A stretch of 61,793 bases of DNA, counting the filler. It is 7 parts of 7 records of this genome, joined end to end, with 100 filler letters (N's around TTAATTAATTAA, not from the genome) between each part and the next. Parts side by side here need not be neighbours in the genome. Positions count along the whole stretch, not along the records: positions 31,171 to 40,299 come from DRR378314_1830; 6 more parts are not named here. One strand, given 5' to 3'. Shown here piece after piece: positions 29,051 through 49,134 of the stretch (positions are counted from its first letter, which is position 1; each line of letters opens with the position of its first letter). The notes under the pieces were generated by a model, which worked only from the letters and a program-made list of their open reading frames with translations, did not search any database and was not told the origin of the DNA. The translations under genes and the position numbers were made by a program.

Positions 29051-30880
29051 ATGGTTGCCGCGAAAAAGTCCGCGACGTCGGTCGCCGCCATCCCGCGCTT
29101 GTTTGACGAGTGCCAGCGCAGTTTTGCTTCGCATCGCAAGGCCGCAGCAGTTCTGCGAAAGATCCAAGTAGATGATCCGGAGAGTTTTGCCAAGGTTTTC
29201 ACGCAGCAGGTGGATCGACTGCTTCTGGTCTTCAAGCGCGAGCCCGCTGTCGAACGTCTCGTGCAGTTTGTGGTTTCCTTCTCCACCAACGTGGCGCTTG
29301 GCGCCGGCGACGCAGAAGAGGATGCCGGCGATACCAACTTCGCCCCCTACCTTCTCGCGTATCTCATTCGTTATGCAAACGCGAAAGAAAAGTCTGTTCG
29401 ATTTCGCGTGTGCCAATTCGTTGGTGGGCTCTTGGCACAAATGAGCGAGGAAGCAGAGATCAGGTGCGCGACGCGACAGACTCCCGCGTGTCCTTGGCGC
29501 GCGCCGCCGCTGCTTGGCTGCACTGCGGAAGCCTCTCTACGTCTCTGCCCGCTGCACGCTTTGCTGCTTTGCAACGGAATCAAGGCGGAACGCTTATTGC
29601 ATTGGGAAAGCTCTTTGCCTCTCCCTGAATCGATGAGGTTGTGGCTTCTCGCCGCTTCTAAGGAGAATACCGTTTGCACGCGTTGCACGTCGGTGCTGGT
29701 GTGTGCTTCGCTTTCTGTGGCTGACCAAGCGTTGTTGCTGCGCAAGGAGCGTGTGGTCGCGTTGACAGATTTGGCGCGAAGAGCTGTTCGCGCAGGGACG
29801 GGAAACCCCAGACAGGCAGCGTGCGCACGTACAGCAAGAGACCGTCCTCCACCATTGCATTACCCAACCCAACTCTCACAGTCGTTTTTTTCTTTCGTAT
29901 ACTTTTATTCTCATCTTAATTTGTCACAACTGGATCGCTGCGCGACACAACAGCGATGAGCTTTGGGAAACCGTACAAAACGAAATGCTCCTGCGCGCAA
30001 CCGACAAGGTTCCTGCAGTGCGAGCGCAGGCGATCAAAGCGCTAACGCGCCTACAGGACCCGTCCGAAGTCAACGACCCTGCTATGACGACCATTTTACG
30101 GGCGATGGAGCATGATCCGAGCAAGTATGTTTCTTGTTGATAGTAAGCGGGGGCACCAGTTCTCATGAATTTCTTGGTAGGACAATCTGACGAGGGTTCG
30201 GGATCGTCGCTGCACGGAGGCGAAACCGCGCCGTGCAACCCTGCAGCGCAGCGCGAAAGGCCATGCTTTGCCTGCCTGGCTAGTGCCGCTTTTCTTACAA
30301 CCATGCCGACATACTCAGTGACTCACGATATTGTTGCTTGTTTCGTTTTGTGTGTTTGTGCAGGGAAGTGCGAAAGATGGCCCTGTCCGCCATCGCCATG
30401 ACGCGCTCAACGCTCCCGTACGTGCTGCAGCGCCTGCACGACGTGAAGGAAGACGTCCGCCGCGAAGCGGTGCTCCTTGTCGGAACAAAGATCAACATGC
30501 TGCATCTAACGATCCAGCAACGTATCGATGTCCTCCGCGGGGCGCTCCGCGATCGGAGCGCCATGGTGCGGGATGCGTGCAGCGGAATTATCAAATCCGA
30601 GTGGTATTCCAAGGTATGCATTGTGGCAGTGCGCTCCTACCCATCTACGCGGGTCCTTGCTGGCGCGCAGTGCGTTGCAGAAAGGGTCTTACGGTGACGA
30701 GCGCGGCACTGCTTCTGGTGCAGGCGAGCGAAAAGAGTGCGGTTGCGTTTGTGCGCGCCCTAGACGTCGAAACGTACGAGGAGGTCGCCGAGACTGCAGC
30801 TCGCTGCGTGCTGGAGGAGTGCGTCAGCGACGAGGCAGGCCCGTTCAGTGGAGCATTTGCGCCAGCGCTGGAAACAATCG
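29051..30880 (+). CDS. NCAPG: Condensin complex subunit 3 (CAP-G/Ycg1), first four exons (3' truncated)
   Basis: Exons 29051-29463, 29954-30124, 30364-30613, 30724-30880, all GT..AG and in frame; HEAT motifs KSVRFRVCQ, RATDKVPAVRAQAIKALTRLQD, HDPSKEVRK, DVKEDVR, LRDRS..V, LDVE. Confidence 0.9.
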
Positions 30881-31070
30881 GTACGTGTCGTCGATGGGCG
30901 ACAGCATGCGCAGGTGAAAAGCCTCAAAAACCAGTCACACGGAAATCGTGGCGTATGCTTTGTTTGCGAAAGGAATTTTACGTGTGCTTTTGGCGACGAC
31001 ATCCGCGAGCGTTGAATGTGTGCGCTGGGCGGACTATTTGTTTTTCTTTTTTCTTTTTTCTTTTTTCTTT

Positions 31071-31170
31071 NNNNNNNNNNNNNNNNNNNNNNNNNNNNNN
31101 NNNNNNNNNNNNNNTTAATTAATTAANNNNNNNNNNNNNNNNNNNNNNNNNNNNNNNNNNNNNNNNNNNN
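31071..31170. other. Artificial contig spacer
   Basis: N-run/TTAATTAATTAA/N-run. Confidence 0.99.
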
Positions 31171-32529
31171 GGCGCGCCGCGACTTCTTACCGATACGGAA
31201 GCAGAGTACAGCGTCGGTGTTGTGAAGCACCATCTCCTCGACGGTCGTATTGTGCTGCATTTCCGCATCCGCAACACCGTCGATTTCGTTTCGCTTTCCG
31301 ATGTGCGTGTCGAATTGGAACTTCTCGAGTCTTCGTTGCCAATCGTGGACGTCCAGGTCGTTTCCTGCGCTTCCATTGGCTACGACGAAACTGGCGATGT
31401 GCTCTGCGTAGTGACGAGCGACAATGGCGGCGACGAAAGCGCCATCAATCTCTGCTCCTTCTCCGCAGTGCTGCACTTTATGCAGCACGAGCGCGATCCA
31501 GACTCGGGAGATGTCGATCCCGATGGTGTGGAAGACGAGTACCAGATCGAAGACGTTCAGGTAACGAAAACCGCTCGCTCTGCTCCGACATCGACTTGCG
31601 CCGTTCCTTGTCCTCTGACCCGTTTGTCCTTAAAGCACTCGCTTGCTTTATTTGTTTTTTTTCTTGTCACCTGGTATTTTCGCCGATAGAGTGAGCGCTT
31701 GGCAGGAGGATTCCGCTAGAGGTCATGTGCGCTTGGTTGTGTGGACTTGGAATCTCGGCACCTTGTCTCACGATTGTCTATGCGGAAGAGTCCTTGTTGC
31801 TCATGTATAGAAACTTGCTTTTGGATCGTGCATCCTACAAACCCAGGGAGTGTTCGCCTTGTCGTGGCGTTGCTTTTTCCCAGCGTGAGTGTTCGGTTCT
31901 TGTTGTGCTTCGTAGAGCTGGTACCAGAGGTGTTGCTGCGGTTGTATTTCATCGGGAGTAGTTTGGGACTGTATCGCCTCGGACGCTTACACGTTGCTCT
32001 GTAGCGTATTGCGCTTCCCTCGTATGGGTTCTACTAGCGACATGGGAATATAAGTTATACTTATTTCTTGTATTGCCACGTGTGGCGCAATCATGGTCTC
32101 TCTGGGTAGGAATTCGATCTCTGCCGTTTCGCTTATTCGTTTCTCCCTGTTCTCTCTCTCTCTCTCGTGCAGCTCTCTCTGCCGGATTACATCCAGAAGA
32201 TCAATGTCAGCAGTTTCCGATCGACGTGGGAATCCATGGACGACAGCAATGATGCGTCTGATGTATTCGAATTGACTGCGATTCACAGCGTGAAAGAAGC
32301 AGTGATGAAAGTTGTGGATCTTCTTGGAATGCAGGTGTTTGGCGATGGCGAGTCGGTGGCGGAAGATGCGGCAATGCACGTGCTGTACCTGAGCGGACTG
32401 TTCCAAGGCGCCAAGACTCTCGTTCGCGCACAGTTCAAACTGGGGGATGCCGGATACGTTCACATGCGTATTGGCGTGCGGACGGAGAACGCGCTTGTAA
32501 GCCAGTTGGTCATGTCAACGTTTGGTTAA
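31171..32529 (+). CDS. COPG: Coatomer subunit gamma, C-terminal appendage (last two exons)
   Basis: Exons 31171-31560 and 32173-32529, phase-0 GT..AG intron with (CT)n tract; LTDTEAEY.V..VKH, DPDSG...DG.EDEY.IED, LLGMQ, H.LYLSG.F. Confidence 0.88.
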
Positions 32530-35263
32530 ATAATAGCAGTCTGCGGTTCATTGCTTCACCGCTCGCGTGTCAGTGGCCCAGCGCGCTCTGGTGCTCCAAA
32601 CGTGCAACACTGTGTGGACGTGCGGACTTTGGGCATGTTTGCCATTGATCCTTCCCGTGTTGCTTGAAGTACTTTCCCCCGTTTTTTGCGTTTCTTCGTG
32701 CGTGTGTATGTATCTTGAGCACGCGCACGCTATTTTTCCTCGTGTGTTGTCCCCGCCTTGACTCCGCCAAGTTTGCGCGAAGCAAGAGGGTCACCTTTCT
32801 GGAACAAGAGGAAGCTGTCAGCGCGCTGCAAAACCTCCGCGATTTGGTTTCGGCGCACACTGTCGCCATCCTAGTCGTGCGCATGATAAGAATGGTGCTG
32901 CTTCTTCGCCAGCTGCGCAGTGCATCAGTGTGTATCAGCGAGACAATGAGAAATGAATGTGGGAGCGTTATAAGGCGACTTGGCGGCGGAAATGTTGTCG
33001 CATGGTGCGCTATGAACTTGCTTGCATGGCGGGACGGTGACTCCCGGCCCACTGGAATCCTGCCAGATCGCCCTTGTGCGCAATGGCAACGTGCTCGATG
33101 CGCTTGTCCTGTTCGGCTGTGGGAACTGAAACGACGTCAAAGAGTGCACAGCACGTGTTTGGTAATGCGAGCAACCTGCGGTTCTTCTGGTGAACTGATC
33201 GCGCGACGCACGTTTGCAGTGCGTGGTTTTGCCACGTTGGTGCGTTTGCCGAAGGCCAAAACAAATGGTCGCGAGCAGAACCGGCCCCCTTCACTGCGCC
33301 GTGCTCGTTTCCGAGTGCCTGGGAGTCGACACAGGGGCATTGCGTGTATATTTGGCGCTACGTGCGGCCCGCAAGCCGCCGGGACCATTCTGATCATTTC
33401 TCGAATCCTTCTGCATTTTGGAACGCTGCACTGTATAGTCCTTATCCTCTCGCTGGTTTTGACGGAGAATCCGTCGTTGTCCGCACGCTCTTTCCCGGTC
33501 AGATGAGCATATTCAGAAACCAAATGCCACATATTGAGCCACGTTGGCCTTCGAGACACGTCTCGAACAGCACCAGTACCGTACAGGCCGGGAAGTAGCT
33601 GTTGAAGCGCCTCCGTATCGCTGCGACTGCGGCAGTGCGGCGAGGGCGTCGGGTGGGAGAGCAGGAGCCACGGTCTCGACAGGCGAAGAGCTGTCGCTCA
33701 GCGCGGAGGTACTGCGGCAGGCTCGAGAGGACGCGGGAACATGAGAGGGCCGGGTCCGGCGCTCAACTCTTTGCAGAAATGGAATGGATACCTGTTATTG
33801 CGCACAACTCGACTTCTGTAGTCAATAGAGATCGGCTGTGAGAAGTGATGTATTCAGAAAGATACTGCCGGAGTACCGTGCTGTGTACGTGGCAGGGCAA
33901 GGTTCGCGCGAATGGGGTTGCAGCGCGGATCAGCGAGGTGTCGCGCGGGCGTTCTTGTCCTCACCCTACTTGGTAGTGGTGCGATTTCTTTCACGGTAAT
34001 CAGTTTGGTCTATCGCAATGGTCTTGAGAGCAGTACACAGGTGGATACACGTTGGGAACGCGCTTGCACATCACTGAAATTTCCCCTTCCGCATCTGCCT
34101 CGCCTGTCTGTAGAAGCAGTGCAGAGGTACGGCGCGACCTTGTGCGGGAACCGGGCTGCTGCGGTACATCACAAAACGTGCGCACTACGATGCTGAGTAA
34201 CTCCGTCTCCACAATCAGCGAGCTTGGTGGTAGGACATTCTTTCATATTGAGCACTTAGTTCCATCCTCTCCGCGGTTACGAGCAGGTCTGTTGCGCAGC
34301 TCTTTCGCAAGGTGCTGAGGGAGTGACAGCGTCATGGTAGTTGGGGTGGAACTTCTCACCGCGCGCGGGCCTCGATGTCGCTTCTCGATCAGTATAGTGC
34401 GCGAATTCTCTTCTCTTCCCCCAATTATCGCTGTCGTTTCCGCGAATGAGCTCCAAATCGGTAGAATTGGGTGTATTAGATTCCTTTGATGAATAGGATG
34501 CGACCCTGGCGGCTTCTCTGCGAATAGTGATCTGCGTGAGGCTACCTCGCAAGGAAGACCCTCGCGGACCCTGGGCCACTGCAGCAGCTCTGCCCTTGGG
34601 TGCGCGTTGGCCCTGTGCCCTGCCACTGCATCATGATCCTTCCCCTCCCATGCACAGAAGGAAAAAGTTTGCTCTTTCGCATCCCAAATACCAAAGATTT
34701 TGTGGAATTTATTGACAGGCGTAAACCATGGGCCCTATCTGTCAGCTGTATTCTGTTTGTGTGCTGGGTGGTATGGCAACGGGAGGGCGGTGGCCGCGTG
34801 ACCCGCGCGGCCGCCGCGCCGTCGGTGCCTCGCTCTGCGTCTTCCTTGCCCCGGGCCCCGAAGCCCCCGGCAAAGAGCGCAGAACGCGCCACCGAAACTG
34901 CTCACCAATACTCACGCTGCACTATAATTGTATGCCACCACAAGCATTCGCCTTTCCTATTTTTTTCTGCGAGAAAAAAAGCACCACGTCACGGGTGACA
35001 CTCGTACCCTGCTTTTGGTTCTGTGCCCTTGCGTCAGCGCGCCGTCCAATGTCTGCACCGCTCCGCCGCAGGGGCGGGGCCCAGCCCTTGGCCAGAGCGC
35101 TGACGCACGCGTGCGCACGCCGCGCACAGCGCTCTGGCCAGCACGAGCGCTCTGCTTGTACCCTGACGTCCGCCAGACCACAGTCTTCACACGTCGTAAC
35201 TGATGCTCTCATCTCTCGCCCACAACTCATGTCGCTTGTTACACGTAGGGCAAATATCGTATC

Positions 35264-37222
35264 ATGGGCGCAAAAGGTGACAAGACTGAGAAGCGCGTGC
35301 TCGGGCGCGAGGAGTTTCGCGTTCCTTTGCAGGCGCGCTATGTCTTGCTTGCCATCGCTGCGGTCTACGCGGGAGTTGTCCTCAAGGCAGTGCTCGATGG
35401 ACAGTACTCCAAGGCCCTCGACTTTTCGGATGCACAGGGACTCATCTCCATGGATGGAGGAAACCAACGCATGAGGATTGCATTCAAAAAAGTGGCGGGA
35501 ATTCGAAAGGCGCTTGCAGTGGGAGACTATGACAAAGCATTTGCGGAAAGTGAGCTCATCACCTTACCCGCAAGCATTGAAAATGAGGACGAACTTGTGG
35601 TGCTCCACGTTGCTGCCGCACGGATTCTGGCAAAGAAGTTTGCGCTAGCAGCCAACGCTCTCGCTCGCATCCTTCATAAGCGTCTTGTCACTGCAAAAGA
35701 AGAGCTTGTCAAGCTGCAGGATGAAGAAGAGGTATGCTTTACGAAGATATATCCTACGTGCACGGCCTGTTTCTATTCTTGGTTGTTGCCGATGCGATGG
35801 TGTAGACGGCCCATGGAGCTCTGCAGAGCGCGCGCGTTTCTGCTTTGCGCAGTCGCAATATCCAGCTCGTCTCGTCGCTTGTTTCTCACTCATCATGAGT
35901 AGAAAAGGGAGTCCCTTTTCCTTTCTGCAGGTCGGAAAAGAATGCTACGTATTAGTATGATTTAGACTGGGAGTGTCCAGGAGAACAGTCCTGGAGGTGT
36001 CGCCTCTGCGTCTCCAAGTACAAAATGTCGGCGCGGAGGTCGCCTCCCACGCACGCAGATGGCCTTGGCTGTACTTGCGCTGCCTTTCCGCCTGTGAGAG
36101 AGCAGTCTCCGATAGGGGATACTCCCGTATGAGCCCATTGCACGTCACATAAGTAGAAAGAAAATACTGGTATCGGCTTTGCAACGGAGTGGACTTGGAA
36201 AAAAATAGCCGGAGAATGCCCGTGTCGACTACTTCAAGGAGTGGCAGTCTCGCAGAAGCGGGTGTCGTTCTTTATCGGGACTCCGTGGGGCCAGGCGGGA
36301 CATACAGCCAAAACGTAGTGCCTCCGCTCTAGGAATCCTGTCGTGCTGTCCACATGAGATGACTTATACGCGCAAAAACTTCACGCATCCTGCTACCCGA
36401 CTTCCTCAGATCGCTGCTGATGAAGATGAAACGGATATTGAAGAAACTACCGACGGCGGGGAAGTCGAGGAAGTCGTTAGCCCTCTGGAACAAGCGCAAA
36501 ACGACTATCACCAAAGTTTCCTCGGATACACGCTCTTTGCCACTGCAACGTCGGTGCTACTCGTGGGTGAAGGAAAAGCGAAAACAGCCCACAAAATTGC
36601 TGTCAAGTGCGAAAGAGATCTCGGTCAGCTTCCGGACGGCCTTCGGGTGCATCCCTGCTTCGCTGCGCGCTTACTCGCGCTGGTGTCGAAGAACGGGCTG
36701 TCCGAGGCTCTTTCGTCCACGGTCACATCGCTGTCGACGATGCAGTCGAGCGCACTCCAGCCGCTGCTGCAGACGGTTCTCAAGGCCGCCGGACTCAGTG
36801 ACAACCAGGCAGACGTAGCGTCGGACGGTATTGTCAGCAAAGGTCTCTTGCCCACTATTCTTCCGATGCTCCTCACCTACTTGAAAAGGTATATTGCTGA
36901 TTCCTTCCCGACCGTCCGTATCGAAGTCATTGACGCGCTTCCAAGCAGCTCCAAGGTCGTCATTCTCCTGGTTTCGTCGTTCCTGCGTCAGACGGTACAT
37001 AGCTTCGCCCCGGTAATTTTTAGCATCCTTGGCATCAAGACGGAGGTGTCGACGCCATCTCTTTCCTTTGGCGACGCTATCCGTGTCGGAACGCGAACGC
37101 TCGCGCGCATTATCGCCAACAATGCCGAGAAAGTCGGAGTCGACATTGAGCTCGCGGACCTCGAGGAAATGGTGAGCTCACTTACTAAGTCTGCAATCTC
37201 CCTAGCGAGTTCCATCCTCTAA
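35264..37222 (+). CDS. Eukaryotic hypothetical protein, two exons (about 426 aa)
   Basis: Exons 35264-35731 (GTATGC donor) and 36410-37222 (CTTCCTCAG acceptor) join in phase 0; an acidic tract continues across the junction. Confidence 0.65.
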
Positions 37223-37764
37223 AGATACCGAAGAAGATGAGATTGCTTGGGGATGGTGGAGAACTGGTTTTGTTTCGCTCAATCTATCTCGGCGAAACTT
37301 GCCATTCTCTCTCCCCTGACGCTTCGTACTTTGTGGGAGATGGATGGCAGCGCTTGCCGTGACTGGAATCCGTCAAGTGCGCCGTGCTCCATCTTGCACA
37401 AAGGTTTACGTATGTAAATGTATGAAAATCCGATTTTTCGAGCGTATATATTCTACTGGTAGCTCGTTTGCTGTGGATGTGGACAGGGGGTGTCTTTATG
37501 GCCTCTGGGTGGCGCGGGCGCGAGCGGGAGCGCTGCGGCAGCGGGGGGGGGGAAACTCCGACAGCAGCGCGCGCGCGCACTCTAGCGCGAAAGCTGCGTT
37601 GGAACAGGGCGCGTCATTCCCCTTGACGTGTATTCGCTGTCAAATTTGGTGAGCCACACCATCCCATTCGTAGCACAAACGAAAAAATCAGATCCCGTTC
37701 CGGTACTATACATGCTGCTGCGGACGCGCTTGGGAATGCCGTGTTGGTGCTCTGGCGCGGCACC

Positions 37765-40136
37765 CTAGTTGAAGTAGACAAAGTCGCGGCCTTCGGTCCA
37801 GCCCATCGAGAGCACGTTCGCCTCGTATCCGCAGTGCAGTCCACCGCGCTTTACACATGCAACAACCGGTGGAACAGCATCTGTCATTGAACACGTTTGT
37901 ACAGCGAGATTCACCCGTGCATAATGTGAGAACCGGTGCAATACATACGCACTCCCGCGCTCTAACGCTCTCCGAAATCAGCAGCAAACTCGAGAGGAGG
38001 AAAGGGCAGCGGAGACTGCAGAGACGGGCGGGCGCACTCGCATTGGATTTCGAGGCGTTCCTTCCCATGCCAAACCAGTCTCTGGAAACATTTACACTTC
38101 AGCTTGCTTTCTCAAACAAACATGCGGTCAGAGGGGGAAAGAAATTCTCATATGTGCTGGTTTCCCGCGTAGCGATCCCAAGGCGGCACGAATCGCATAC
38201 AAAAACCTACGACGCCATTCCCCGTACCACGAAAATGGACAATTGGTATCGTCCGCGTCTGGCTTTTGTCGCTTTTGTCAATATACGTGTAGTGTCCGCG
38301 ATTGATCATTCGCTCGTCAATGTCGCAAAACTTTGCAATACTGCACGCGACCGACGTCAATATGCCAGAACGAATTGTGAATGAGCTTGGCGCAAACCAC
38401 TCTTCGTCGGTACCGGGCACAAAACTCGTGCCCTCACACATTCGCATCGCGCAGCACGTCCAATTTCTACTCAAAATCTTCAGGTCTGTGCGCGTCTATG
38501 CAGGTCCCACCACGCCCGCCGCGACACGTACCGGCTCTTCCCTCTGCGGCTCAGGGAACGGTAGAGACGACGACCTGTTTTGCCGGCTCCCCACACAGTC
38601 ACATTCGACCAGTCATACAGGTCCATCTGACGAGGGAAAAACGGGCGAACAAAAATAGTGACAATGATGCTGCGTTAAGCAACTTCACACGCAGAGTGAA
38701 TAGCGATTCGGCAAACTATCCCGACGCAGCTCCGTATGACAGTAAGCGCTGTCCGGCTGTGATCCGCGCTGCAGACGTGGTGCTTGGCGTCCGATTACCA
38801 CAAGAGTGGAAACAGACGGAACAGCTACCGCAATGTACTGGCCGTGATTGTGTGTACTTGCATTCTGAAAATAAAATGCAACACGAAACAGAAACTCAGG
38901 TAGAGTCGGGTGGCAACGTACCCAATGTTCCAGGAGAGCAGCACGTTCGCGGTCGATCGCCTCGCTGGGAACGCGGTGCGAAGCACAAGCGCTGTGGTAT
39001 CTCCAGAGACACATCGAAGCGGGTACTAAAGCCAGTTCTCCCTGTGCAAGTACATGCTTATGAAGAAACATGGCATCTTCTGCGGAATGAAGAAATTGGA
39101 ACAGCATGGAAACCGTTCCACTGAGTGAAATGGAAATATTCGCCCGACAAAGTGCAGCGCAGTACAACCGTGCAGTGATGACGCGCAGTGACGACAAGTT
39201 CGTCTTCTCTTCGGACAGCAAGATGACCAGCTGCACACGGTTCGCATGGATAGAACCGAGGTACAGACGGATGCAGGTCTTTGTGTTTACAAAAACACCG
39301 AAAGCGACGCGATTGGGCAAAGAAAAACGCGAACGCGCGGATTCGTACCAGGACAGCCAAGTCCTTCTTCTGCGTAGCCATCAAGCTCTTTCCATCGGGA
39401 ATAGTTCATCACCCAAGTCGGATGAATGATGGTATTTTCACAAAAGAGCTGTAAATACAGTTGTTCAGGCTGTAGATGATTTGCCCATTCAGTTAAACGC
39501 GCAGTAGATTCCTACAAACGAAACAAGTACGGAGAAGTAGCGCAAGGAGAACGCTTAGTGTCGTGCACTGTAACCAAATCTGGCTCATCACGCACAAAGT
39601 ACACGTTTGGTGCAAACGCGTTTCACCTCAGCCGCGCGATTCACACTTTCTGGGTAACAATCAATGCCACATAAGAACACTGAACAATCCGAATTTTGTC
39701 CAGCAGTACGAAGTAGCAAAGTGGCTAGACTGGAAAAAAAACAACCGCCGTTGCGCATGGGCTAAAAGGGGACCCGAGGTCACAGGAACGTGCACGACGC
39801 AGAGCAAACAGCTTCGCTACTCCATCGCGAAACGAGAAAGCATGCTCCTGGAACGAGCAGAATTTCGCCTAATTGTTCTTTCCGCGTGGTACCTCGTTGT
39901 CATATTTCCCACATATACTGAAGATTTGGCTTTGGGATAGGTGAGTTGCGTTTCGTTCTGCGCGTGTGGCGGGGGAGGAGGGGGTGGACAGGCGTTTGCG
40001 CGCCGGACCGCGGTGTCGTGCGTGGTGGCTCGGTGCACCGCTGGCGACGGCGACGCACCGCTGGAATTCTGTCGAATCGCGTCCCCGTGAGTGCGCGAGG
40101 TACACGGCGCAAAATTGCCCTTTGTACGCGAATACG
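37765..40136 (-). CDS. B3GNTL1: B3GNTL1/QTGAL-like GT2 glycosyltransferase, last six exons (5' truncated)
   Basis: Exons 40136-40059, 39511-39349, 39079-38922, 38626-38532, 38340-38228, 37880-37765 join in frame into 240 aa plus stop; motifs T.I.PTW, PED..F, L.RYH, VWGAGKTGRRLYRSL, FCDID, IPIVHFR, PP...CVK, EG.DF..F. Confidence 0.88.
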
Positions 40137-40299
40137 CTGCCGGAACGCCGAGCAAGTGAGCGAAGGAGGGAATGAACGAATGCGAAGAATATCCACCGAG
40201 ATAATCCGACAGCCCGACAAATAAGCGGATTCCACACACAACGCAAAAAAAAAAAAACAAAAAAAACGAAAAGAAACAGCAAATACGAAAACAATTACA

Positions 40300-40399
40300 N
40301 NNNNNNNNNNNNNNNNNNNNNNNNNNNNNNNNNNNNNNNNNNNTTAATTAATTAANNNNNNNNNNNNNNNNNNNNNNNNNNNNNNNNNNNNNNNNNNNN
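40300..40399. other. Artificial contig spacer
   Basis: N-run/TTAATTAATTAA/N-run. Confidence 0.99.
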
Positions 40400-40401
40400 A
40401 A

Positions 40402-43209
40402 GGAGAAATGACTAATAAATTCTTATCTGAAACCACCTACGTAAACATGGTTATTGATGATGGCAAACAACAAAAGCCAACAATTAATGAACCTATTTTA
40501 CTTTCTGGCTGGGGAAATAATTCTTGGAGTTATTCTACTAATTTTTTAAACCAAGATGTTCAAATAAAATTGGTTGATTATATTCCTTGGGCAACACAAA
40601 AATTTATAGAAGACGAAAACGGAGAAGACTATTTATTTGTTGTAGAATCTAGTAGTGGATCTAGACATGAACATTATATAAAAAAAGGAACTGTACAAAA
40701 CATCCATAATGTTTTAGTTGGTTTTGATGCACCAGACACTGCAACAATTAATATTACCTCATCAGAAACTGGATTAAATATCAAAACAGGAGTTGAAGGG
40801 ACGTTTATGAGAATGGCAGATAGATTAGAAGGAACAGTAACTAAAGACTCTGTTCAAGATTTTAAATTAAGATCTTTATATAAAGTAGCAGGATTACCTT
40901 TTGTGGTTCCAAATCCTGTAACTAAAGGAAAAATGACTACTGTTAGAGGTCCTAAAAACGACAAAGACTTAAGTTCTGATATGATCGTTTTAGATGTAAC
41001 TACAAATAATAAAACAGAGAGAGTTGAATTGACAGGTGGAAAGTTTAACTCTAGAAACTCTAAACAATTTAAAGTAGATAATTTAAATTTTAGAATGTTG
41101 TACGGATCAAATACATTAGAAACTCCTTTTCATATTAAGCTAAAAGATTTTCAATTAGAAAAATATCCTGGCTCTGAAAGTGCAGCATCTTATGCAAGTG
41201 AAGTTACTGTAATCTCACCTGAGAAAACTTTTGATTACAGAATATATATGAATCACATTTTAGACTATAAAGGCTATAAATTTTTTCAATCTAGTTATGA
41301 CTTAACTGGAGAAAAGGAAGAAACTCACTTATCTGTAAATCATGATTTTTGGGGTACATTAATCACCTACATTGGGTATTCTTTATTATACTTTGGAATG
41401 ATTTGTATCTTGTTTGCAAAAAACACACGTTTTGACTCTTTAAAAAATACACTAAAAAAGATAAGAAAGAAAAAGGCTGCTTTAACAGTAACTGCTATTT
41501 TGTTTCTTTCCTTAACTGTATCTGCGCAACAACAACATCAACAACATTCAATTACTGATAAGCAAATAGACTCTATATTAAAAGCAAATATTGTAGATGC
41601 AAAACATGCTGAATTATTTAACACTATAGTTATACAGGATGCTGGAGGGAGAATGAAACCAGCTCATACATTTGCTTCTGAATTGGTTAGAAAAGTTACT
41701 CATCAAGAAACTTTTAAAGGGATGAACCCAAGTCAAGTTTTATTATCTATAATAGAAAACCCTAGGTTTTGGATAGAAGTTCCGATGATTTATTTAGAAA
41801 AGAACAATACTAAAATTAGAGAGCAATTAGGGCTAACTAAAGATGCAACTCATGCTAGCTTATCTAAACTACTAACTCCGAAGGGAGAATATTTAATAAG
41901 AGATCAAGTTGCTGAAGCTCAAAAAAACAATGTTAAAAATAAATTTGAAAAAGATTTAATTAATATTGACAAGAGAGTTGGTCTGTTGTATGGTGCAATT
42001 GGTGGACAAATATTTAAAATTTTCCCTATTCCAAATGACCAAAATAACAAATGGGTTTCTCAACTAGAAACCTTACATTCTAACTTCAAGGGAACTGATT
42101 CTGTATTTGTAAGACAAGTATTACCATTTTATAAACAAGTATTACAAAAAGCTAAAACAACTAATGATTATGCACAAGCTGATAAAGTTTTAGAAGGAAT
42201 TAAGAATTTTCAAAAGAAATTTGGAAGTAAAGTTCTACCATCTGAAGATAGAATAAACCTTGAAATTTCTTATAATAAATTAAACCCTTTTAGTAGACTA
42301 TCAAAATTGTATGGAGTTTTTGGAGTGCTATTAATCTTCATTGTTATTGCTCAAATATTTACAGATAAAAAAATCTTGAGCAAGCTTATAAAAAGTTTAA
42401 TTGGAGTAATTATTGTATTGTTTATTCTTCATACTTTAGGTTTAGCTTCAAGATGGTATATAAGTGGTAATGCTCCTTGGAGTAATGCATACGAATCAAT
42501 TATCTATGTTGCTTGGGCTACAATGTTATTTGGTTTAGCGTTTGGAAGAAAATCATCCTTAACAATTGCGGCTACAACATTTTTAACTTCTGTGATATTA
42601 TTATTTGCGCATCAGAACTGGCTAGATCCAGAAATTGCAAATTTACAACCTGTACTTAACTCATGGTGGTTATTAGTTCATGTATCAATTATTGTTGCAA
42701 GTTATGGCCCTTTTTCTTTAGGAATGATTTTAGGTATTTTCACATTATTCTTAATGGCTTTTACAACAGATAAAAACAAAAAGAAGCTTGACTTAGCAAT
42801 TAAAGAGCTAACTGTAATTAACGAAATGTCTATTACCATTGGCTTAATTATGCTAACCATTGGGAACTTTTTAGGAGGAATGTGGGCTAACGAAAGTTGG
42901 GGACGTTACTGGGGTTGGGATCCAAAAGAAACTTGGGCCTTAATTAGCATTATGTTGTACGCATTTGTTTTACACATGCGTTTAATACCTGGCTTAAGAA
43001 GTAGATACACATTTAATTTATGGTCTATAATTACATTTGCATCAATTATGATGACGTATTTTGGAGTAAACTTCTATTTATCTGGATTACATTCTTATGC
43101 AAGTGGAGATAAAGTAATTACACCTAATTCAGTATTCTATTCTATTGGTTTCGTTGCTATTTTAGGAACCTTTGCTTGGATAAAACACAAAAAATACTAC
43201 AAAAAATAA
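40402..43209 (+). CDS. ccsA: System II cytochrome c biogenesis protein, ResB/CcsB-CcsA fusion (5' truncated)
   Basis: WWD motif WANESWGRYWGWDPKETW, L.PVL.S.WL..HV, GLHSYA; ResB-like IYMNH.LDY.GY.FFQSS. Confidence 0.93.
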   Translation, partial: GEMTNKFLSETTYVNMVIDDGKQQKPTINEPILLSGWGNNSWSYSTNFLNQDVQIKLVDYIPWATQKFIEDENGEDYLFVVESSSGSRHEHYIKKGTVQNIHNVLVGFDAPDTATINITSSETGLNIKTGVEGTFMRMADRLEGTVTKDSVQDFKLRSLYKVAGLPFVVPNPVTKGKMTTVRGPKNDKDLSSDMIVLDVTTNNKTERVELTGGKFNSRNSKQFKVDNLNFRMLYGSNTLETPFHIKLKDFQLEKYPGSESAASYASEVTVISPEKTFDYRIYMNHILDYKGYKFFQSSYDLTGEKEETHLSVNHDFWGTLITYIGYSLLYFGMICILFAKNTRFDSLKNTLKKIRKKKAALTVTAILFLSLTVSAQQQHQQHSITDKQIDSILKANIVDAKHAELFNTIVIQDAGGRMKPAHTFASELVRKVTHQETFKGMNPSQVLLSIIENPRFWIEVPMIYLEKNNTKIREQLGLTKDATHASLSKLLTPKGEYLIRDQVAEAQKNNVKNKFEKDLINIDKRVGLLYGAIGGQIFKIFPIPNDQNNKWVSQLETLHSNFKGTDSVFVRQVLPFYKQVLQKAKTTNDYAQADKVLEGIKNFQKKFGSKVLPSEDRINLEISYNKLNPFSRLSKLYGVFGVLLIFIVIAQIFTDKKILSKLIKSLIGVIIVLFILHTLGLASRWYISGNAPWSNAYESIIYVAWATMLFGLAFGRKSSLTIAATTFLTSVILLFAHQNWLDPEIANLQPVLNSWWLLVHVSIIVASYGPFSLGMILGIFTLFLMAFTTDKNKKKLDLAIKELTVINEMSITIGLIMLTIGNFLGGMWANESWGRYWGWDPKETWALISIMLYAFVLHMRLIPGLRSRYTFNLWSIITFASIMMTYFGVNFYLSGLHSYASGDKVITPNSVFYSIGFVAILGTFAWIKHKKYYKK

Positions 43210-43261
43210 AAGGCAAATTTTACAGAAAAATGTACATTTGTCAACTTATAATATATAAAAC

Positions 43262-43777
43262 ATGTTTCACAAAAACTTTAAATTAATAATTGCAGCTTTA
43301 ATCACTGCATGGTCTGTATACGAATTTTCTCAAGGACATATTATGAATGGTATTTCTATATTATTCTTAGCAGGATTTTTCATCCTTTTGTACTTTAAAA
43401 ATGAATTTATTTTATTAGCTTTTTTACAATTACGAAAACAAAATTTCCCTGGAGCTCAAAAATGGTTAGGCTATATTAAAAACCCAACTGCAGCTTTAAC
43501 AAGAAAACAAGAAGGCTATTATAATTTCCTACATGGAATCATGCTTTCACAAACAAATATTACGCAATCTGAAAAATATTTAAAAAAGGCTGTTAAGTTA
43601 GGATTATCTATGGGACATGATTTAGCAATGGCTAAACTTCAACTAGCTGGTATTGCTATGACAAAAAGAAGAAAACGTGAAGCTACTATGTTAATGAACG
43701 AAGCTAAAAAATTAGATAAACAAGGAATGTTGGGTGATCAAATTAAAATGATGAAACAACAGATGAAAAAAATCTAA
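43262..43777 (+). CDS. Conserved flavobacterial membrane protein with TPR-like helices
   Basis: Two N-terminal TM helices followed by a helical, Lys-rich region. Confidence 0.7.
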   Translation: MFHKNFKLIIAALITAWSVYEFSQGHIMNGISILFLAGFFILLYFKNEFILLAFLQLRKQNFPGAQKWLGYIKNPTAALTRKQEGYYNFLHGIMLSQTNITQSEKYLKKAVKLGLSMGHDLAMAKLQLAGIAMTKRRKREATMLMNEAKKLDKQGMLGDQIKMMKQQMKKI

Positions 43778-43799
43778 TTCAATAAAACAACATTTATGT

Positions 43800-43827
43800 A
43801 AAACTCCTGATAATCAGGAGTTTTTTT
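43800..43827 (+). terminator. Intrinsic terminator
   Basis: AAAACTCCTGA-TAA-TCAGGAGTTTTTTT. Confidence 0.8.
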
Positions 43828-43884
43828 ATTTTAAGAGTAAGTTTTAAAAATAAATAACGACATTTAGGTAAATCAACTTAATTA

Positions 43885-44919
43885 ATGAAAACTCTCTTTT
43901 ACATATTAGGATTTGTTTTATTATCCTCTTGTTCTAGTTCTATAGAAAACGAACCTGAAACTATTGACATTACCCAAGAAAACAAATGGATAAATGTAGA
44001 AAAACCCTACCCAGAAGGACAAGATGGAATGTTTCCTTTAGTAAATAAACCTATTTACAAAACAGTTAGTGAAATGACTAACCTGAAAGATTCTGATAGA
44101 GTAGCAATTGTTAGCTATCATAATAGAATAAAAGTTTATCCTTATTTATATGTAAACAAATCAGAAATTGTTAATGATTCTATAGGTGAATATTTCTATG
44201 CTGTTTCCTATTGTCCACAAACTAAAAGCGCCATCAATTTTAATAGAATTGTGCAAAACGACACTTTAGATTTAGTTGCATCTGGTTATTTATATAAAGA
44301 CAACATGGTTCCATCTGATAAGGATTACAATTTATATTGGTCGCAAATGTTAATGAAAGGAATTACTGCAAATGCAGATTTTAGAAACTTAAAAACCTCT
44401 AATTTAATACAGACTAATTGGAAAACTGTTGTTTCTCATTTTTCAAAAGCTAAAGTTTATTATTACGAAGGCGACATTATTACACCAAGAAAAGAAATTC
44501 AAAATTTAAATAGCAAATCAAATACAGAAATAAATAATGCTGATGAAGTATTTGCTATTGTAGATAATTTTAATAATACAGTAAAGGATTTATCAATAAT
44601 CGCTTATCCTTTAAAAACATTTTCAGAGCAAACTGTTTTAAAAGAATTAATTATAGATAGTGAAAAAACCGTTTTACTTGTTAATAAAGAGAACTACTTT
44701 TATTCAACTTACAAAGTACCAAACGGTTTAGTAATGCATATAGAAAACAGCAGTTTTCCTCCTGTTTTAGGTGATAACGAAGGTAATGAGTGGAATGCTT
44801 TTGGTTATGCAATTAGTGGACCTAGAAAAGGACATCAATTACAGTCTTCAAAATCTTACATTGCTTCTTGGTGGGCTTTCAAAGATTTTTTTAAAGAGAA
44901 AATTACTATTAAAAATTAA
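43885..44919 (+). CDS. DUF3179 domain lipoprotein
   Basis: Lipobox LLSSC; YP......EIVND, SYCP, SG.LY..N....D....WSQ, G.A.SGP.KG..L. Confidence 0.8.
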   Translation: MKTLFYILGFVLLSSCSSSIENEPETIDITQENKWINVEKPYPEGQDGMFPLVNKPIYKTVSEMTNLKDSDRVAIVSYHNRIKVYPYLYVNKSEIVNDSIGEYFYAVSYCPQTKSAINFNRIVQNDTLDLVASGYLYKDNMVPSDKDYNLYWSQMLMKGITANADFRNLKTSNLIQTNWKTVVSHFSKAKVYYYEGDIITPRKEIQNLNSKSNTEINNADEVFAIVDNFNNTVKDLSIIAYPLKTFSEQTVLKELIIDSEKTVLLVNKENYFYSTYKVPNGLVMHIENSSFPPVLGDNEGNEWNAFGYAISGPRKGHQLQSSKSYIASWWAFKDFFKEKITIKN

Positions 44920-44921
44920 TA

Positions 44922-46589
44922 CTATTCTATTCTTTTTATACTTAAATCTGGTTGATACTCTAACAAGAACAATCCTTTGTTTTCAGAAATACTAAAGAGT
45001 CTTTTCTTGTAATCAAACTTACTTTCTATTCTATAAGACACTCCGTCTTTAAAAGTACTTGATAACTTTTTTCCAGAAGCTAACCTCATCAAAACATCAT
45101 AAGTAACATCAAAACCTCTAGTAGCATAATAGGATGGTAAAGCTTTATTTTTCTGTAAATATTGTTTGTTAAAAATTCTTACTGCTGAAGAGTTCTCATC
45201 TACATATGTATCTGTAACGTATACAAATTCTAATTGACCATATTTATTATTGTCTACATAATTAGATTTTTCAAAACCAAAAAGTTTTACTAAGTAATTT
45301 GTTTTCTCAATTGGTTCTTCTGCTTCCTCTCCTTCTTCTGATTCTTCAGGTTCTGGTGGGTCTGGAAAACTAATTAAACTATTAATAGCATCTGCAGCAA
45401 TTACATTATTATTTGTTGCGATAATTACCCAATTTTTAATATTAGTCGTATCAGGTTTCATCATTTTTAGAAAACGCTCTTGAGCTATATAACCATAATG
45501 AGGAATTATCTCATGAACTACATCTATTGAATCATGTTGTTTTAAAACATTTGCAATTTGCTTAATCTCAGTAATAGAAGCAGATGTTGAATCTCCTACT
45601 ATGATGATATTTTCATTGGTATATTTTTTAGTTACATAAGACAATAACTTTTCTTTATACAAGTGCTTATCTGGTGAAGTTTTTACAATTCTAGAAGACG
45701 TAAAAGACGTTTGAGATTTTGAAAATACTGGAAATATTAATGGAGCACTTACACTATTTGCTAACTTTTTAGTTTCATCAGAATATATAGATCCAATAAT
45801 TGCATCTTGATTTTCTAGTGTATTATTAGTAATTAAATCATTAATTACAGTATTTCTATCCTCTGTATCTATAACTGTTAAATCTATATTTACACCTTTG
45901 TTTTTTAAAGAGTCTATTGCCAATTCAGCACCTAAATAAAAATCAGTAACAATATTAGGTAATCTTCTATTTTTAAAAATTTCCTGAGAAGTTACGGTAT
46001 CAAAAACCTTTGCTCTAAATGGTAATAACAGAGCTACTTTTATTGACGAATTTAAAGCTATTGAATCTTTATATATTACATCTAGGTTTTCACCTACTAC
46101 TCTTTTTTTTATCTTAATCGTCAATCCTAACTTTAGCCCGTCTAATAAAACAGGGTTTAACTCTAATAGTTCAGATTTTAAAACATTGTAATATCTTGTT
46201 AAGCTATAAAATGTATCTCCTTTCTGAACTTCATGTATAACATATATTTTCTTTATAGAGTCTAATTCTGTTTTTATGACTTGAATAGAGTCTTTGATTA
46301 AAACAGAACCTTTATCAAGCCCCGTTTTTATTTTATCTACAGCAGTATTATCTTCGGTTAAATTAATTAGTCTTTTATTAGGAATTACAATTTCCGTATC
46401 TGCTTTTGGTCTTCTACTTACATCTGGGTTTAAACGCATTAAATCTTTAGTTTTAACATCTAGTTTCCTAGCAATGCTTCGCATTGTTTCCCCTTGTTTT
46501 ACTTTATAAGTAATGTATTTTTTTTGTTGACCACAAGAAATTGCAATCGTAAAAATAAATAAGGTAACTAATAATTTAATATGCTTCAT
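44922..46589 (-). CDS. LysM-domain lipoprotein with periplasmic-binding-protein-like C-terminal domain
   Basis: Lipobox AISC; two LysM repeats (YKVKQGET..SIA...LNP; HEVQKGDT.YSL...LNP); 'KVALLLPF', 'DFYLGA..AIDSL', 'RGFDVTYD'. Confidence 0.85.
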   Translation of the reverse strand: MKHIKLLVTLFIFTIAISCGQQKKYITYKVKQGETMRSIARKLDVKTKDLMRLNPDVSRRPKADTEIVIPNKRLINLTEDNTAVDKIKTGLDKGSVLIKDSIQVIKTELDSIKKIYVIHEVQKGDTFYSLTRYYNVLKSELLELNPVLLDGLKLGLTIKIKKRVVGENLDVIYKDSIALNSSIKVALLLPFRAKVFDTVTSQEIFKNRRLPNIVTDFYLGAELAIDSLKNKGVNIDLTVIDTEDRNTVINDLITNNTLENQDAIIGSIYSDETKKLANSVSAPLIFPVFSKSQTSFTSSRIVKTSPDKHLYKEKLLSYVTKKYTNENIIIVGDSTSASITEIKQIANVLKQHDSIDVVHEIIPHYGYIAQERFLKMMKPDTTNIKNWVIIATNNNVIAADAINSLISFPDPPEPEESEEGEEAEEPIEKTNYLVKLFGFEKSNYVDNNKYGQLEFVYVTDTYVDENSSAVRIFNKQYLQKNKALPSYYATRGFDVTYDVLMRLASGKKLSSTFKDGVSYRIESKFDYKKRLFSISENKGLFLLEYQPDLSIKRIE

Positions 46590-46663
46590 AAATATATATT
46601 TCAGTAAAATTACAAAAGCTAACAACTTTAATATGATAACAGTAAAATTGCCAGCTTAGTATA

Positions 46664-48199
46664 TTATTCCCATTCTATAGTTGCAGGTGGTTTAGAACTA
46701 ATATCATATACAACTCTATTTACACCTTTTACTTTATTAATAATATCGTTAGAAATTTTTTGTAAAAACTCATATGGTAAATTTACCCAATCAGCAGTCA
46801 TTCCATCTGTACTTTCTACGGCTCTTAGAGCAACACACTTTTCGTAAGTACGTTCATCTCCCATTACACCAACGCTATTTACAGGTAACAACATTGCTCC
46901 TGCTTGCCAAACTTTATCATACAAACCCCAATCTTTTAATCCGTTGATAAAAATTGCATCAACATCTTGCAAAATACGAACTTTTTCTGCAGTAATATCT
47001 CCTAAAATTCGAATCCCTAACCCTGGTCCTGGAAATGGATGGCGACCTAACAATTCAGAATCAATTCCCAATGTAGCACCAACTCTCCTTACCTCGTCTT
47101 TAAAAATAGCTCTTAAAGGCTCTACAATTTTTAATTTCATAAAATCTGGCAATCCACCAACATTATGATGAGATTTTATTGTAGCTGAAGGCCCTCCTGT
47201 TGCAGAAACACTTTCAATTACATCTGGATAAATAGTTCCTTGAGCTAACCATTTAACATCTTCTAATTTATTCGATTCGTCATCAAAAACCTCTATAAAA
47301 GCATTTCCTATTGCCTTACGTTTTTTCTCTGGGTCTTCAATATTTTTTAAAGCGGTTAAAAAACGATCAGAAGCATCTACTCCTTTTACATTTAACCCCA
47401 TACCTTCATATTGCTTTAAAACGCTTTCAAATTCATTTTTACGTAACAAACCGTTATTAACAAAAATACAATACAAGTTTTCTCCAATTGCTTTGTTTAA
47501 TAATACAGCTGCAACAGTAGAATCTACTCCTCCAGACAATCCTAAAACCACTTTATCATCTCCAACTTTTGTCTTTATAGCTTCAACAGTTTCTTCTACA
47601 AAAGAATCTGGAGTCCAATCCTGCTCTAATTCAGCTATATTTACTAAAAAGTTTTCCAATAATTGTTTACCATCTGTTGAGTGATATACTTCTGGATGGA
47701 ATTGAATTGCATAAGTGGTTTCACCTTCAATTTTATAAGCTGCATTTTCTACATCATGAGTACTGGCCAATAAAACACCATTTGAAGGTAGCTTTTTAAT
47801 TGTATCACTATGACTCATCCAAACCTGACTTCCTACTTCAACATTTTTTAAGAAAATCTCATCGTTATTTACAAATGATAAATTTGCTCTACCATATTCT
47901 CTTGTATTGGAAGGAGCTACTTCTCCACCAGAAAAATGCGCCAAATACTGTGCTCCATAACATACAGCTAGTAATGGTTTCTTTCCTCTAATATTTTCTA
48001 AGTCTGGATGTAGTGCATCTTCTCCTCTAACAGAGTTTGGGCTACCAGATAAGATAACTGCTTTATAAGCTTCTAGGTTTAACGGAATTTTGTTGAATGG
48101 ATGTATTTCGGAGTAAATGTTAAGTTCTCTAACTCTACGCGCAATAAGTTGTGTGTATTGCGATCCGAAGTCTAAAATTAATACCTTGTTGTGTTGCAT
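46664..48199 (-). CDS. guaA: GMP synthase (glutamine-hydrolysing)
   Basis: [46 protein letters not shown]. Confidence 0.98.
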
Positions 48200-48270
48200 G
48201 CGCAAAAATACTACAAGAATTTAGATAATGAAATATCTATTTTATTTTTTTTATCTATTAACTATAAATA

Positions 48271-48729
48271 CTAAAATCTATAAACAATCGCATTGATGTT
48301 CATTCCAGACCCAACTGAGGCAAATATCACAACGTCACCTTCGTTAACTTGTTGATTTTCAATTTTACCGTTTAACACTAAATCTAGTAGTGTAGGAACC
48401 GTAGCTACAGAGCTATTACCTAACTTATGAATATTCATAGGCATTACATTTTCTGGTGCTTGCTTTTTAAATAACCTATAAAAGCGTTTTATTATAGCTT
48501 CATCCATCTTTTCATTAGCTTGATGAATAAATACTTTTTTCACCTCATCAATACCAAAACCACTTTTATCTAAAGCCAATTTCATTGCTTGTGGTACATT
48601 ATTTAATGCAAACTCATAGATTTTTCTTCCTAACATTTTAATGTATCGTTCTTCTGGATTTGCATTTATATCAAATGATTTTCCAAAAAACAAATAATAC
48701 GCTTCATCCTTAGCAAATGTTTGAGTTGC
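48271..48729 (-). CDS. fabH: 3-oxoacyl-ACP synthase III family protein (5' truncated)
   Basis: HQAN, GNSS.AT.P, SVG.G. Confidence 0.85.
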   Translation of the reverse strand, partial: ATQTFAKDEAYYLFFGKSFDINANPEERYIKMLGRKIYEFALNNVPQAMKLALDKSGFGIDEVKKVFIHQANEKMDEAIIKRFYRLFKKQAPENVMPMNIHKLGNSSVATVPTLLDLVLNGKIENQQVNEGDVVIFASVGSGMNINAIVYRF

Positions 48730-48829
48730 NNNNNNNNNNNNNNNNNNNNNNNNNNNNNNNNNNNNNNNNNNNNTTAATTAATTAANNNNNNNNNNNNNNN
48801 NNNNNNNNNNNNNNNNNNNNNNNNNNNNN
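48730..48829. other. Artificial contig spacer
   Basis: N-run/TTAATTAATTAA/N-run. Confidence 0.99.
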
Positions 48830-48890
48830 AACTCGCAAAATGTAGCGCAAGGCACACAATTTAAAGCATAAGTTTCCTATATAAATTTAA

Positions 48891-48984
48891 GCACTAAAGC
48901 ACGCCTACAGATGAGCTTGATCCATCATGGCAAACATAATCTCCATATCAGCGTCGGCAAATCATGGCTAAAGCCGATTCCTAC
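48891..48984 (-). repeat. Two GTAG-type REP-like elements
   Basis: Minus strand GTAGGAATCGGCTTTAGCC (48984-48966) and GTAGGCGTGCTTTAGTGC (48908-48891). Confidence 0.45.
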
Positions 48985-49057
48985 GCGGTGAGTTTGACAC
49001 CAAGTTAATCTCACAGCTCGGTAACTTTACTCTTACTAAATTACTAACGAAACCCCC

Positions 49058-49092: not shown

Positions 49093-49134
49093 ATCTTAAA
49101 GCTTACGACTTACAGCTCTATAGCTTTAACGAAC

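Follow-up and report, generated by a model that had tools for sequence, protein, structure and literature searches.

We read the gene studied here as the 3' two thirds of a B3GNTL1/QTGAL-family glycosyltransferase gene, transcribed and properly spliced, from a eukaryote with closely spaced genes, and we lean, somewhat beyond an even chance, towards a product that would by analogy galactosylate queuosine (Q). The window, by which we mean the whole stretch of DNA analysed (61,793 nt, filler included), consists of seven contigs joined by N linkers, and the gene occupies one end of a eukaryotic contig of 9.1 kb (31171-40299), with an N linker following from 40300.

Exon structure and splicing

On the minus strand, six exons are separated by five introns, which in the direction of transcription occupy 39512-40058 (547 nt), 39080-39348 (269 nt), 38627-38921 (295 nt), 38341-38531 (191 nt) and 37881-38227 (347 nt). 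Each intron is GT..AG, with GTACG as the donor in four cases out of five, and the exon phases are compatible (0, 0, 1, 0, 2, 1). The joined frame of 723 nt runs unbroken over all six exons, giving 240 codons and a TAG stop at 37767-37765. The first-pass annotation had proposed six minus-strand exons with canonical borders, compatible phases and a product of 240 aa; borders and frame were verified on the sequence, and its exon model, drawn by eye, proved exact. It had also remarked that the ORF track shows fragments only, and the stop-to-stop ORF list does split the exons among three frames.

Evidence for splicing comes from the public run X1, the sole run listed with this DNA (word share 0.19), whose RNA label is a guess; among runs on record as RNA, none is listed with it. 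A contig from this run (1,442 nt, depth 7.1) joins all five of the predicted junctions, omitting exactly the five introns given above (at the first of them the joint is 39510/11 > 40058/59), and each gap reads CT..AC on the plus strand, hence GT..AG in the direction of the gene. Loss of five GT..AG introns from a contig is as expected from spliced RNA, and the junctions predicted from the letters all recur in this transcript-like contig.

Past 40136 the same contig continues as a loose end, 255 letters or longer, of sequence absent from the window. Since the contig runs past 40136, exon 1 starts at the AG acceptor at 40138-40137, which closes the pyrimidine-rich 3' end of a preceding intron (40137-40299, minus strand), and further exons lie off the genomic contig. 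Translated by hand, the first 30 letters of the loose end read V-D-A-D-D-I-I-H-A-D immediately upstream of exon 1. The D-A-D-D, six residues before exon 1, falls in register with the invariant D98, D100 and D101 of alignment A2, and the region agrees as well with the invariant R107 and Q111; the family consensus at the site is LDADDVMxPxR. The first-pass annotation had placed the DxD region beyond the contig end, and the hand translation of the loose end agrees with this. What the window holds is the C-terminal two thirds of the protein, with some 105-135 N-terminal residues outside it. In a hunt for the 5' exons, neither metagenome_contigs nor genome_contigs had any match (0 in each) to an exact 42-mer from exon 1. 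The exon 2 peptide has one match in metagenome_contigs, of 16 residues (L001), which we take as chance because the remaining protein does not match that locus.

Family membership, architecture and conserved residues

Used by itself, exon 2 scores E 4.8e-8 in a search of 1,835,955,588 proteins and retrieves 41 relatives at E<=1e-3; exons 3-6, which played no part in the retrieval, match 26 of these 41 representatives at E<=1e-5. These hits and the independent matches together exclude a chance exon model. The spliced product matches 193 of 195 fetched family proteins at E<=1e-5. Its residues 1-240 align with residues 107-346 of 346 in P0081 (named B3GNTL1 by NCBI, from Mercenaria; 38% identity, E 1e-62 in a small set) and with residues 127-366 of 366 in P0084 (from Pyxicephalus, a queuosine-tRNA galactosyltransferase according to NCBI; 91 of 242 positions identical, 38%, 4 gaps), both alignments extending to the last residue of the relative. 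The identities to P0081 are spread over exons 1 to 6 as 7/26, 22/54, 16/53, 16/32, 15/37 and 17/38. A Pfam scan of 28 fetched relatives placed PF00535 (Glycos_transf_2) on the N-terminal side in 26 of them. Judged by sequence, and on the strength of the collinear, end-to-end alignment with proteins that NCBI names queuosine-tRNA galactosyltransferases, the gene is a member of the B3GNTL1/QTGAL family, as the first-pass annotation had held.

Pfam returned nothing significant on the six single exons, the sole row being FAT at E 0.046, under the cut-off; exon 2 against PDB sequences gave chance-level rows only (E >= 0.27), with no solved QTGAL among them; and a protein homologue search with the 64-aa ORF around exon 4 listed 6 candidates, none at E<=1.

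The full protein is predicted to begin with a GT2 catalytic domain of GT-A fold, with the DxD motif just off the contig, and to end in a small Rossmann-like domain specific to the family. Exons 1-3 would encode the last third of the GT-A domain, including PTW and P-E-D, both invariant. The first exon in the window, exon 1 (40059-40136, 78 nt, 26 codons), comes shortly after the DxD motif and aligns with residues 127-152 of P0084, exon 2 (39349-39511, 163 nt) carries the invariant T..PTW block, and exon 3 (38922-39079, 158 nt), at the end of the GT-A domain, carries the conserved P-E-D motif, presumed to be the catalytic base region, in which E81 and D82 are retained. Exons 4-6 would encode the C-terminal domain with its GxGxxG-type loop. 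The domain starts in exon 4 (38532-38626, 95 nt) with the glycine loop W-G-A-G-x-x-G-R, continues in exon 5 (38228-38340, 113 nt) with the blocks F-C-D-I-D and I-P-I-V-H-F, and closes in exon 6 (37765-37880, 116 nt including the stop) with the terminal family motif E-G-x-D-x-x-x-F.

Our evidence on the fold comes from models of relatives of the query, such as P0063 for the C-terminal domain. In one such model, with pLDDT 95.3, the catalytic domain matches the GT-A enzymes TarS, TarP and RmlT of bacterial wall teichoic acid synthesis, which are GT2 proteins (Foldseek, E 3e-14 to 1e-12, TM about 0.5). DxD-dependent, inverting chemistry on UDP- or TDP-sugars is established for GT2 enzymes and would be common to these three and the QTGAL family. 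Unlike the QTGAL family, however, they use other acceptors and have no C-terminal Rossmann-like domain, and identity to them is 15-19%. For the C-terminal domain of the P0063 model, the matches are small Rossmann domains that bind nucleotides or CoA, namely the N-terminal domain of UDP-D-quinovosamine 4-dehydrogenase (3nkl; Z 8.5, rmsd 2.8 A over 87 residues), Rex (Z 6.9), the CoA-binding domain of ATP-citrate lyase (Z 6.6) and the N-terminal domains of PglD/VioB-type acetyltransferases (Z 6.3), with 81-93 aligned residues and, in common, a glycine loop and, following strand 2, an acidic residue; as Z scores these are middling, and perhaps they show a common arrangement only.

How well are the family residues kept? 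Among 49 non-redundant relatives, 49 columns are conserved at >=85% and 13 are fully invariant; the query retains 39 of the former and 12 of the latter. The family residues tested in PTW, P-E-D, WGAGxxG, C and the terminal EG are kept. The ten changed positions include F>V142 in an invariant column, Y>W106, and K>M176, which falls in a near-invariant D-V-D-x-K-K block.

Replacements of this kind, together with the long branch described below, are what would be expected of a decaying or non-functional gene copy. We nevertheless reject the pseudogene reading as very improbable, since the 240-codon frame is unbroken over six exons, the locus is represented by a spliced contig in run X1, and about four fifths of the conserved positions stand. 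The differences listed in exon 2 point the same way, two of the three being synonymous and the third a V>M change.

Relatives and host

With the animal QTGAL (B3GNTL1) proteins the query is collinear across its 240 residues to the C-terminus, and it shares with them DxD (from the X1 contig), PTW, P-E-D, WGAGxxGR, FCD(V/I)D, IPI(V/L)HF and the terminal EGxD..F. It differs from them in the F>V and K>M changes and in its place in the tree. Its identity to each animal protein is 35-40%, whereas animal proteins are 60-68% identical among themselves; within the tree set its identity peaks at 41%, and no protein among 1.84e9 representatives is more than 55% identical to exon 2. The terminal branch of the query is 2.28 changes per column long against a median of 0.43, and in free trees the query falls outside the animal clade, which has support of 99/98.

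Could the contig come from an animal, as host tissue, prey or contamination, so that the gene would be a metazoan QTGAL orthologue of the usual kind? BLAST scores highest against animal proteins, with few gaps, and a tree that holds the query together with 14 animal-clade rows survives the AU test, scoring 8 log-likelihood units above the quick free tree (p-AU 0.65). Against this stand the low identity to animal proteins compared with that within animals, the supported animal clade of the careful tree, which leaves the query out, and the absence of any close exon 2 match in the set of representatives just given. The gene density of the contig argues likewise: its 9.1 kb carry at least 4 transcribed units, about 530 nt separate the 3' ends of neighbouring genes, and introns measure 190-610 nt. 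We therefore consider an animal origin quite improbable, and the host is likely a microbial eukaryote. The proposal of such a host in the first-pass annotation is supported in part, by the gene-dense contig, the bacterial contigs next to it and the free trees; the AU test does not reject the animal grouping.

Some further observations on the surroundings can be added. Bacterial contigs lie beside the eukaryotic one in the window, and the contig is absent from G001, a 4.4-Mb prokaryote and the nearest genome available for comparison (0 of 1 genomes). An Atlas search with a gamma-COP exon led to eukaryote clusters from mixed phyla, a neighbouring 337-aa ORF gave no usable match, and no tRNA genes were found in the window.

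Family members outside animals are already on record. B3GNTL1-like proteins are annotated in Hondaea fermentalgiana (P0048), Chrysotila carterae (P0047), Pavlovales sp. (P0071) and Acytostelium subglobosum (P0057), and the novelty implied by the first-pass annotation was in this respect overstated. These proteins have the same family and architecture as the query (P0048 is 36% identical over 254 columns), but their alignments need 13-56 gaps, against 4 with animal proteins, and none is closely related to it.

Proposed function and significance

By analogy with the characterised vertebrate enzyme, we infer a donor sugar, an acceptor and the presence of queuosine in the host. Most likely, the GT-A domain would bind a UDP-sugar through DxD and a metal ion and pass the sugar, by an inverting reaction, to the cyclopentene-diol of Q34 in a tRNA with a GUN anticodon. 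For the proposed mechanism tRNA-Tyr, the acceptor in vertebrates, serves as the model; the C-terminal domain may help to hold the nucleic-acid acceptor, and queuine would be supplied by bacteria.

QTMAN, the mannosyl-queuosine transferase (GTDC1), belongs to a glycosyltransferase family other than that of QTGAL. As described in the consulted parts of PMC11755703 and PMC12313893, it acts in animals on the same substrate class, Q34 of GUN tRNA, and QTGAL (B3GNTL1) makes galQ on tRNA-Tyr, likewise in animals. Work on animals has characterised both modifications, galQ and manQ, and according to citations in these same parts their enzymes were named only in 2023; their purpose is still termed unclear in the portion of PMC12518689 consulted.

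A member of the same family might, on the other hand, do another job, with a different donor sugar or with another acceptor such as a different Q-tRNA, another nucleoside or a non-RNA glycan, and the gene would then be no indication of galQ. The very long branch and unsettled placement speak for this, as do the ten altered conserved positions, with K>M and F>V at near-invariant and invariant columns of the C-terminal domain. Two animal cases do so as well. In C. elegans a QTGAL gene is present and galQ was undetected on the tested forms of tRNA-Tyr, as reported in the excerpts of PMC12313893 consulted, so that presence of the gene is no guarantee of galQ; mosquito tRNA-Tyr carries manQ, not galQ, in the excerpts of PMC11705514, so that pairings of acceptor and sugar vary. 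Set against these points, the architecture is collinear with that of the animal enzyme, with only 4 gaps to the frog QTGAL, the DxD, PTW, P-E-D and glycine-loop blocks are all retained, and the passages of the literature consulted record no different activity for the B3GNTL1/QTGAL family. On balance we regard another job as rather unlikely, and we keep Q galactosylation as the preferred reading.

For non-animal members of the family, no report of activity was found in the papers searched, and the searched passages of 2026 preprints hold nothing on non-animal homologues. The transcribed homologue described here, in a probably non-animal eukaryote, is one more candidate for Q glycosylation outside animals, to which the members in several protist phyla point likewise.

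More generally, we put forward, tentatively and at somewhat below an even chance, that this fast-evolving, expressed QTGAL homologue makes galQ, or else a different hexosyl-Q, in a protist, free-living or associated with bacteria, that uses bacterial queuine, in which case Q glycosylation would not be an animal-only trait. If this were true, the homologues in labyrinthulomycetes, haptophytes and dictyostelids would date the modification to early eukaryotes, and the altered residues of the C-terminal domain could signal a shifted tRNA or sugar specificity. The locus itself is partial and divergent, and its value is modest, as protist genomes already have annotated proteins of this kind to which it adds little. 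It also illustrates how eukaryotic contigs go unnoticed in assemblies that are mixed or bacterial, in which ORF calling designed for prokaryotes yields only fragments of their genes.

Exon structure and transcript

The QTGAL-like gene lies on the minus strand at the high-coordinate end of the contig at 31171-40299, where the first-pass annotation had proposed six exons, and every detail of their borders is borne out. Exons 1 to 6 run 40136-40059, 39511-39349, 39079-38922, 38626-38532, 38340-38228 and 37880-37765; all five introns between them are GT..AG (with the donor GTACG in four of the five), and the phases are compatible, giving a joined frame of 723 nt, that is, 240 codons and a TAG. The exons are spread over three frames in the list of stop-to-stop ORFs, in keeping with the earlier remark that the ORF track holds only pieces of the gene. 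Since an AG stands immediately before 40136 with a pyrimidine-rich stretch upstream, exon 1 looks internal.

Only one public run was found to contain part of the stretch. This run, X1, consists of assembled contigs, and its word share with the stretch is 0.19. A single 1,442-nt X1 record joins 37880>38228, 38340>38532, 38626>38922, 39079>39349 and 39510/11>40058/59, so that all five predicted junctions occur in one record, each as CT..AC on the plus strand. Spliced RNA gives just such a record, with five GT..AG introns missing, although the run's label of 'RNA' is a guess. In exon 2 three differences between X1 and the window are listed, two of them synonymous and one V>M.

At 40136 the same record leaves the window and runs on for at least 255 letters. 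Of this loose end, the 30 letters shown, reverse-complemented and translated by hand in the frame of exon 1, read V-D-A-D-D-I-I-H-A-D and are followed by R-I-R-V-Q of exon 1. The family consensus there is L-D-A-D-D-V-M-x-P-x-R-I-x-x-Q, in which D98, D100, D101, R107 and Q111 are invariant (49 sequences). The D-A-D-D is thus in register with the consensus, which would put the DxD of the catalytic domain in the transcript, just off the contig, where it had been supposed to lie.

Family membership and a possible activity

Single exons gave no match in Pfam or among PDB sequences. Exon 2 alone (54 aa) retrieved 41 proteins at E ≤ 1e-3 from 1,835,955,588 representative proteins, the best at 4.8e-8. 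The query, the spliced six-exon product, aligns with these proteins well past exon 2, and 26 of them are matched at E ≤ 1e-5 by exons 3-6, which had no part in this retrieval. Pfam Glycos_transf_2 is found on the N-terminal side in 26 of the 28 longer exon-2 matches scanned. Follow-up searches returned 37 proteins with one relative, P0032, as query, and 1,470 at E ≤ 1e-10 with the 41-sequence alignment (names were taken from the best 120 of the 1,470). Many among the matches listed are named in NCBI or UniRef as 'queuosine-tRNA galactosyltransferase' or 'UDP-GlcNAc:betaGal beta-1,3-N-acetylglucosaminyltransferase-like protein 1', and the so-named proteins listed come from frogs, birds, a ray, molluscs, echinoderms, a scorpion and a hemichordate.

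Residues 1-240 of the query align with the last 240 residues of the relatives, through the final residue: 107-346 of 346 in P0081 (Mercenaria, named B3GNTL1 by NCBI) at 38% identity, and 127-366 of 366 in P0084 (Pyxicephalus, named queuosine-tRNA galactosyltransferase), with 91/242 identical and 4 gaps. From the alignment starts in relatives, about 105-135 N-terminal residues are absent from the window. Each exon contributes, the identities to P0081 being 7/26, 22/54, 16/53, 16/32, 15/37 and 17/38 for exons 1-6. Where at least 85% of 49 non-redundant relatives agree, the query keeps 39 of 49 columns, and it keeps 12 of the 13 invariant ones. Retained blocks include T..PTW, P-E-D, W-x-A-G-x-x-G, a conserved Cys and the terminal E-G, and the changed columns are R>Y63, G>D70, Y>W106, F>V142, K>M176, G>C219 and four others. 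Given the collinearity to the relatives' final residue and the conserved columns, the proposed B3GNTL1/QTGAL assignment is sound, and the locus, as judged from its sequence, adds to a known family a new member that is incomplete and unusually divergent.

The predicted model of P0081 (pLDDT 95.3) has two domains, a GT-A domain and a separate C-terminal beta-alpha-beta domain. The former resembles the bacterial GT2 enzymes TarS, TarP and RmlT in their UDP- or TDP-sugar-bound forms (Foldseek E 3e-14 to about 1e-12). In the predicted model of a C-terminal fragment, P0063 (pLDDT 88.2), the part matching exons 4-6 resembles small nucleotide- or CoA-binding Rossmann domains, namely 3nkl (Z 8.5, rmsd 2.8 Å, 87 residues), Rex (Z 6.9), the CoA-binding domain of ATP-citrate lyase (Z 6.6) and PglD/VioB-type N-terminal domains (Z 6.3 and 5.7), although with such middling Z values the likeness is one of fold only. 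In GT2 enzymes the DxD binds the UDP-sugar by way of a metal ion, and an acidic residue acts as the base in an inverting transfer. The query protein would galactosylate queuosine at position 34 (Q34) in its own organism, as QTGAL does, and the Rossmann-like C-terminal domain would assist in holding the tRNA; by analogy, such an activity is plausible. In vertebrates, passages in three papers state, QTGAL (B3GNTL1) puts beta-galactose on Q34 of tRNA-Tyr (PMC11755703, PMC12313893, PMC12518689).

How far does the family reach beyond animals? Among the matches listed, named members come from Hondaea fermentalgiana (B3GNTL1-like), Chrysotila carterae, Pavlovales sp. and Acytostelium subglobosum, so by database sequences the family extends past the animals. 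A link between B3GNTL1 and protists was not found in the literature searched, which did not cover the primary 2023 paper. In the passage on QTGAL and galactosyl-queuosine (galQ) in one article, C. elegans has the gene but galQ went undetected on those forms that were tested, and flies reportedly lack it (PMC12313893); a passage elsewhere gives mosquito tRNA-Tyr mannosyl-queuosine instead of galQ (PMC11705514). The C. elegans case means that presence of the gene is no proof of galQ. Alone, the locus is of modest interest, and would be of more only if hexosyl-queuosine were shown in its lineage or another non-animal one.

Phylogenetic placement and host

Proteins whose match covered at least 190 query residues (155 of 195) were thinned at 70% identity to 49 rows, and quick and careful maximum-likelihood trees were built from 50 rows and 238 columns. 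In both, the query's terminal branch measures about 2.3 changes per column, where the median is 0.43-0.46, and the query falls in no starred clade. The first-pass annotation's reading of the host as a protist stands in part: in the free trees the 14 rows of the animal clade group together without the query (SH-aLRT 98 in the quick tree and 99/98 in the careful one), yet a tree holding the query with the animal rows is not rejected by the AU test (p 0.65) and outscores the quick free tree by 8 log-likelihood units. Separately, seven family members (P0002, P0008, P0013, P0019, P0024, P0031 and P0069) form a subgroup with support 100/99, a long stem and long insertions, ending in G-R-T-E-G-x-D-L-W-H-F-S.

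The 61,793-base window is seven contigs, not a single molecule (1-9699, 9800-18622, 18723-25480, 25581-31070, 31171-40299, 40400-48729 and 48830-61793), with six linkers, each TTAATTAATTAA between two runs of 44 N (9700-9799, 18623-18722, 25481-25580, 31071-31170, 40300-40399 and 48730-48829). G+C is about 54-64% in the first three contigs, whose long unbroken ORFs encode CTP synthase, monomeric isocitrate dehydrogenase, a P450 and a phage-type integrase, among others. The last two have 28-45% G+C and encode, for example, a ResB-CcsA-type cytochrome c assembly protein. The contigs at 25581-31070 and 31171-40299 have 51-55% G+C, only broken ORFs, and eukaryotic genes. These three kinds, high-GC bacterial, eukaryotic and low-GC bacterial, make this a mixed or contaminated assembly. 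The integrase, of the tyrosine type (16518-17714, plus strand), has Arm DNA-binding, central and catalytic domains and hints at an integrated element on its high-GC contig.

At the low-coordinate end of the gene's own contig lies the 3' end of coatomer gamma (31171-32529, plus strand), with both C-terminal appendage domains (PF08752, E 1.7e-26; PF16381, E 1.5e-27). An X1 contig of depth 80.8 bridges its intron at 31558-32169 (612 nt, GT..AG), and another X1 contig, 258 nt long, falls within the intron at 31852-32109. Two further plus-strand units, without a match in Pfam or Atlas, are at 34124-35511 (X1 joint 34124>35247, GT..AG) and at 36209-37229 (a 337-aa open frame, with X1 contigs over 36564-37229). 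The X1 joints and coverage thus give at least four transcribed units in 9.1 kb, with about 530 nt between the 3' ends of the final pair. The query is 35-40% identical to animal proteins, which are 60-68% identical to one another. This low identity, together with the close packing of the genes and the bacterial contigs alongside, speaks for a microbial eukaryote as host. On the other eukaryotic contig, an exon-like ORF at 30284-30694 (plus strand) has a HEAT repeat match of 25.8 bits (cut-off 23.5) and a sub-threshold match to condensin Cnd1, and may belong to a condensin HEAT subunit from the same eukaryote.
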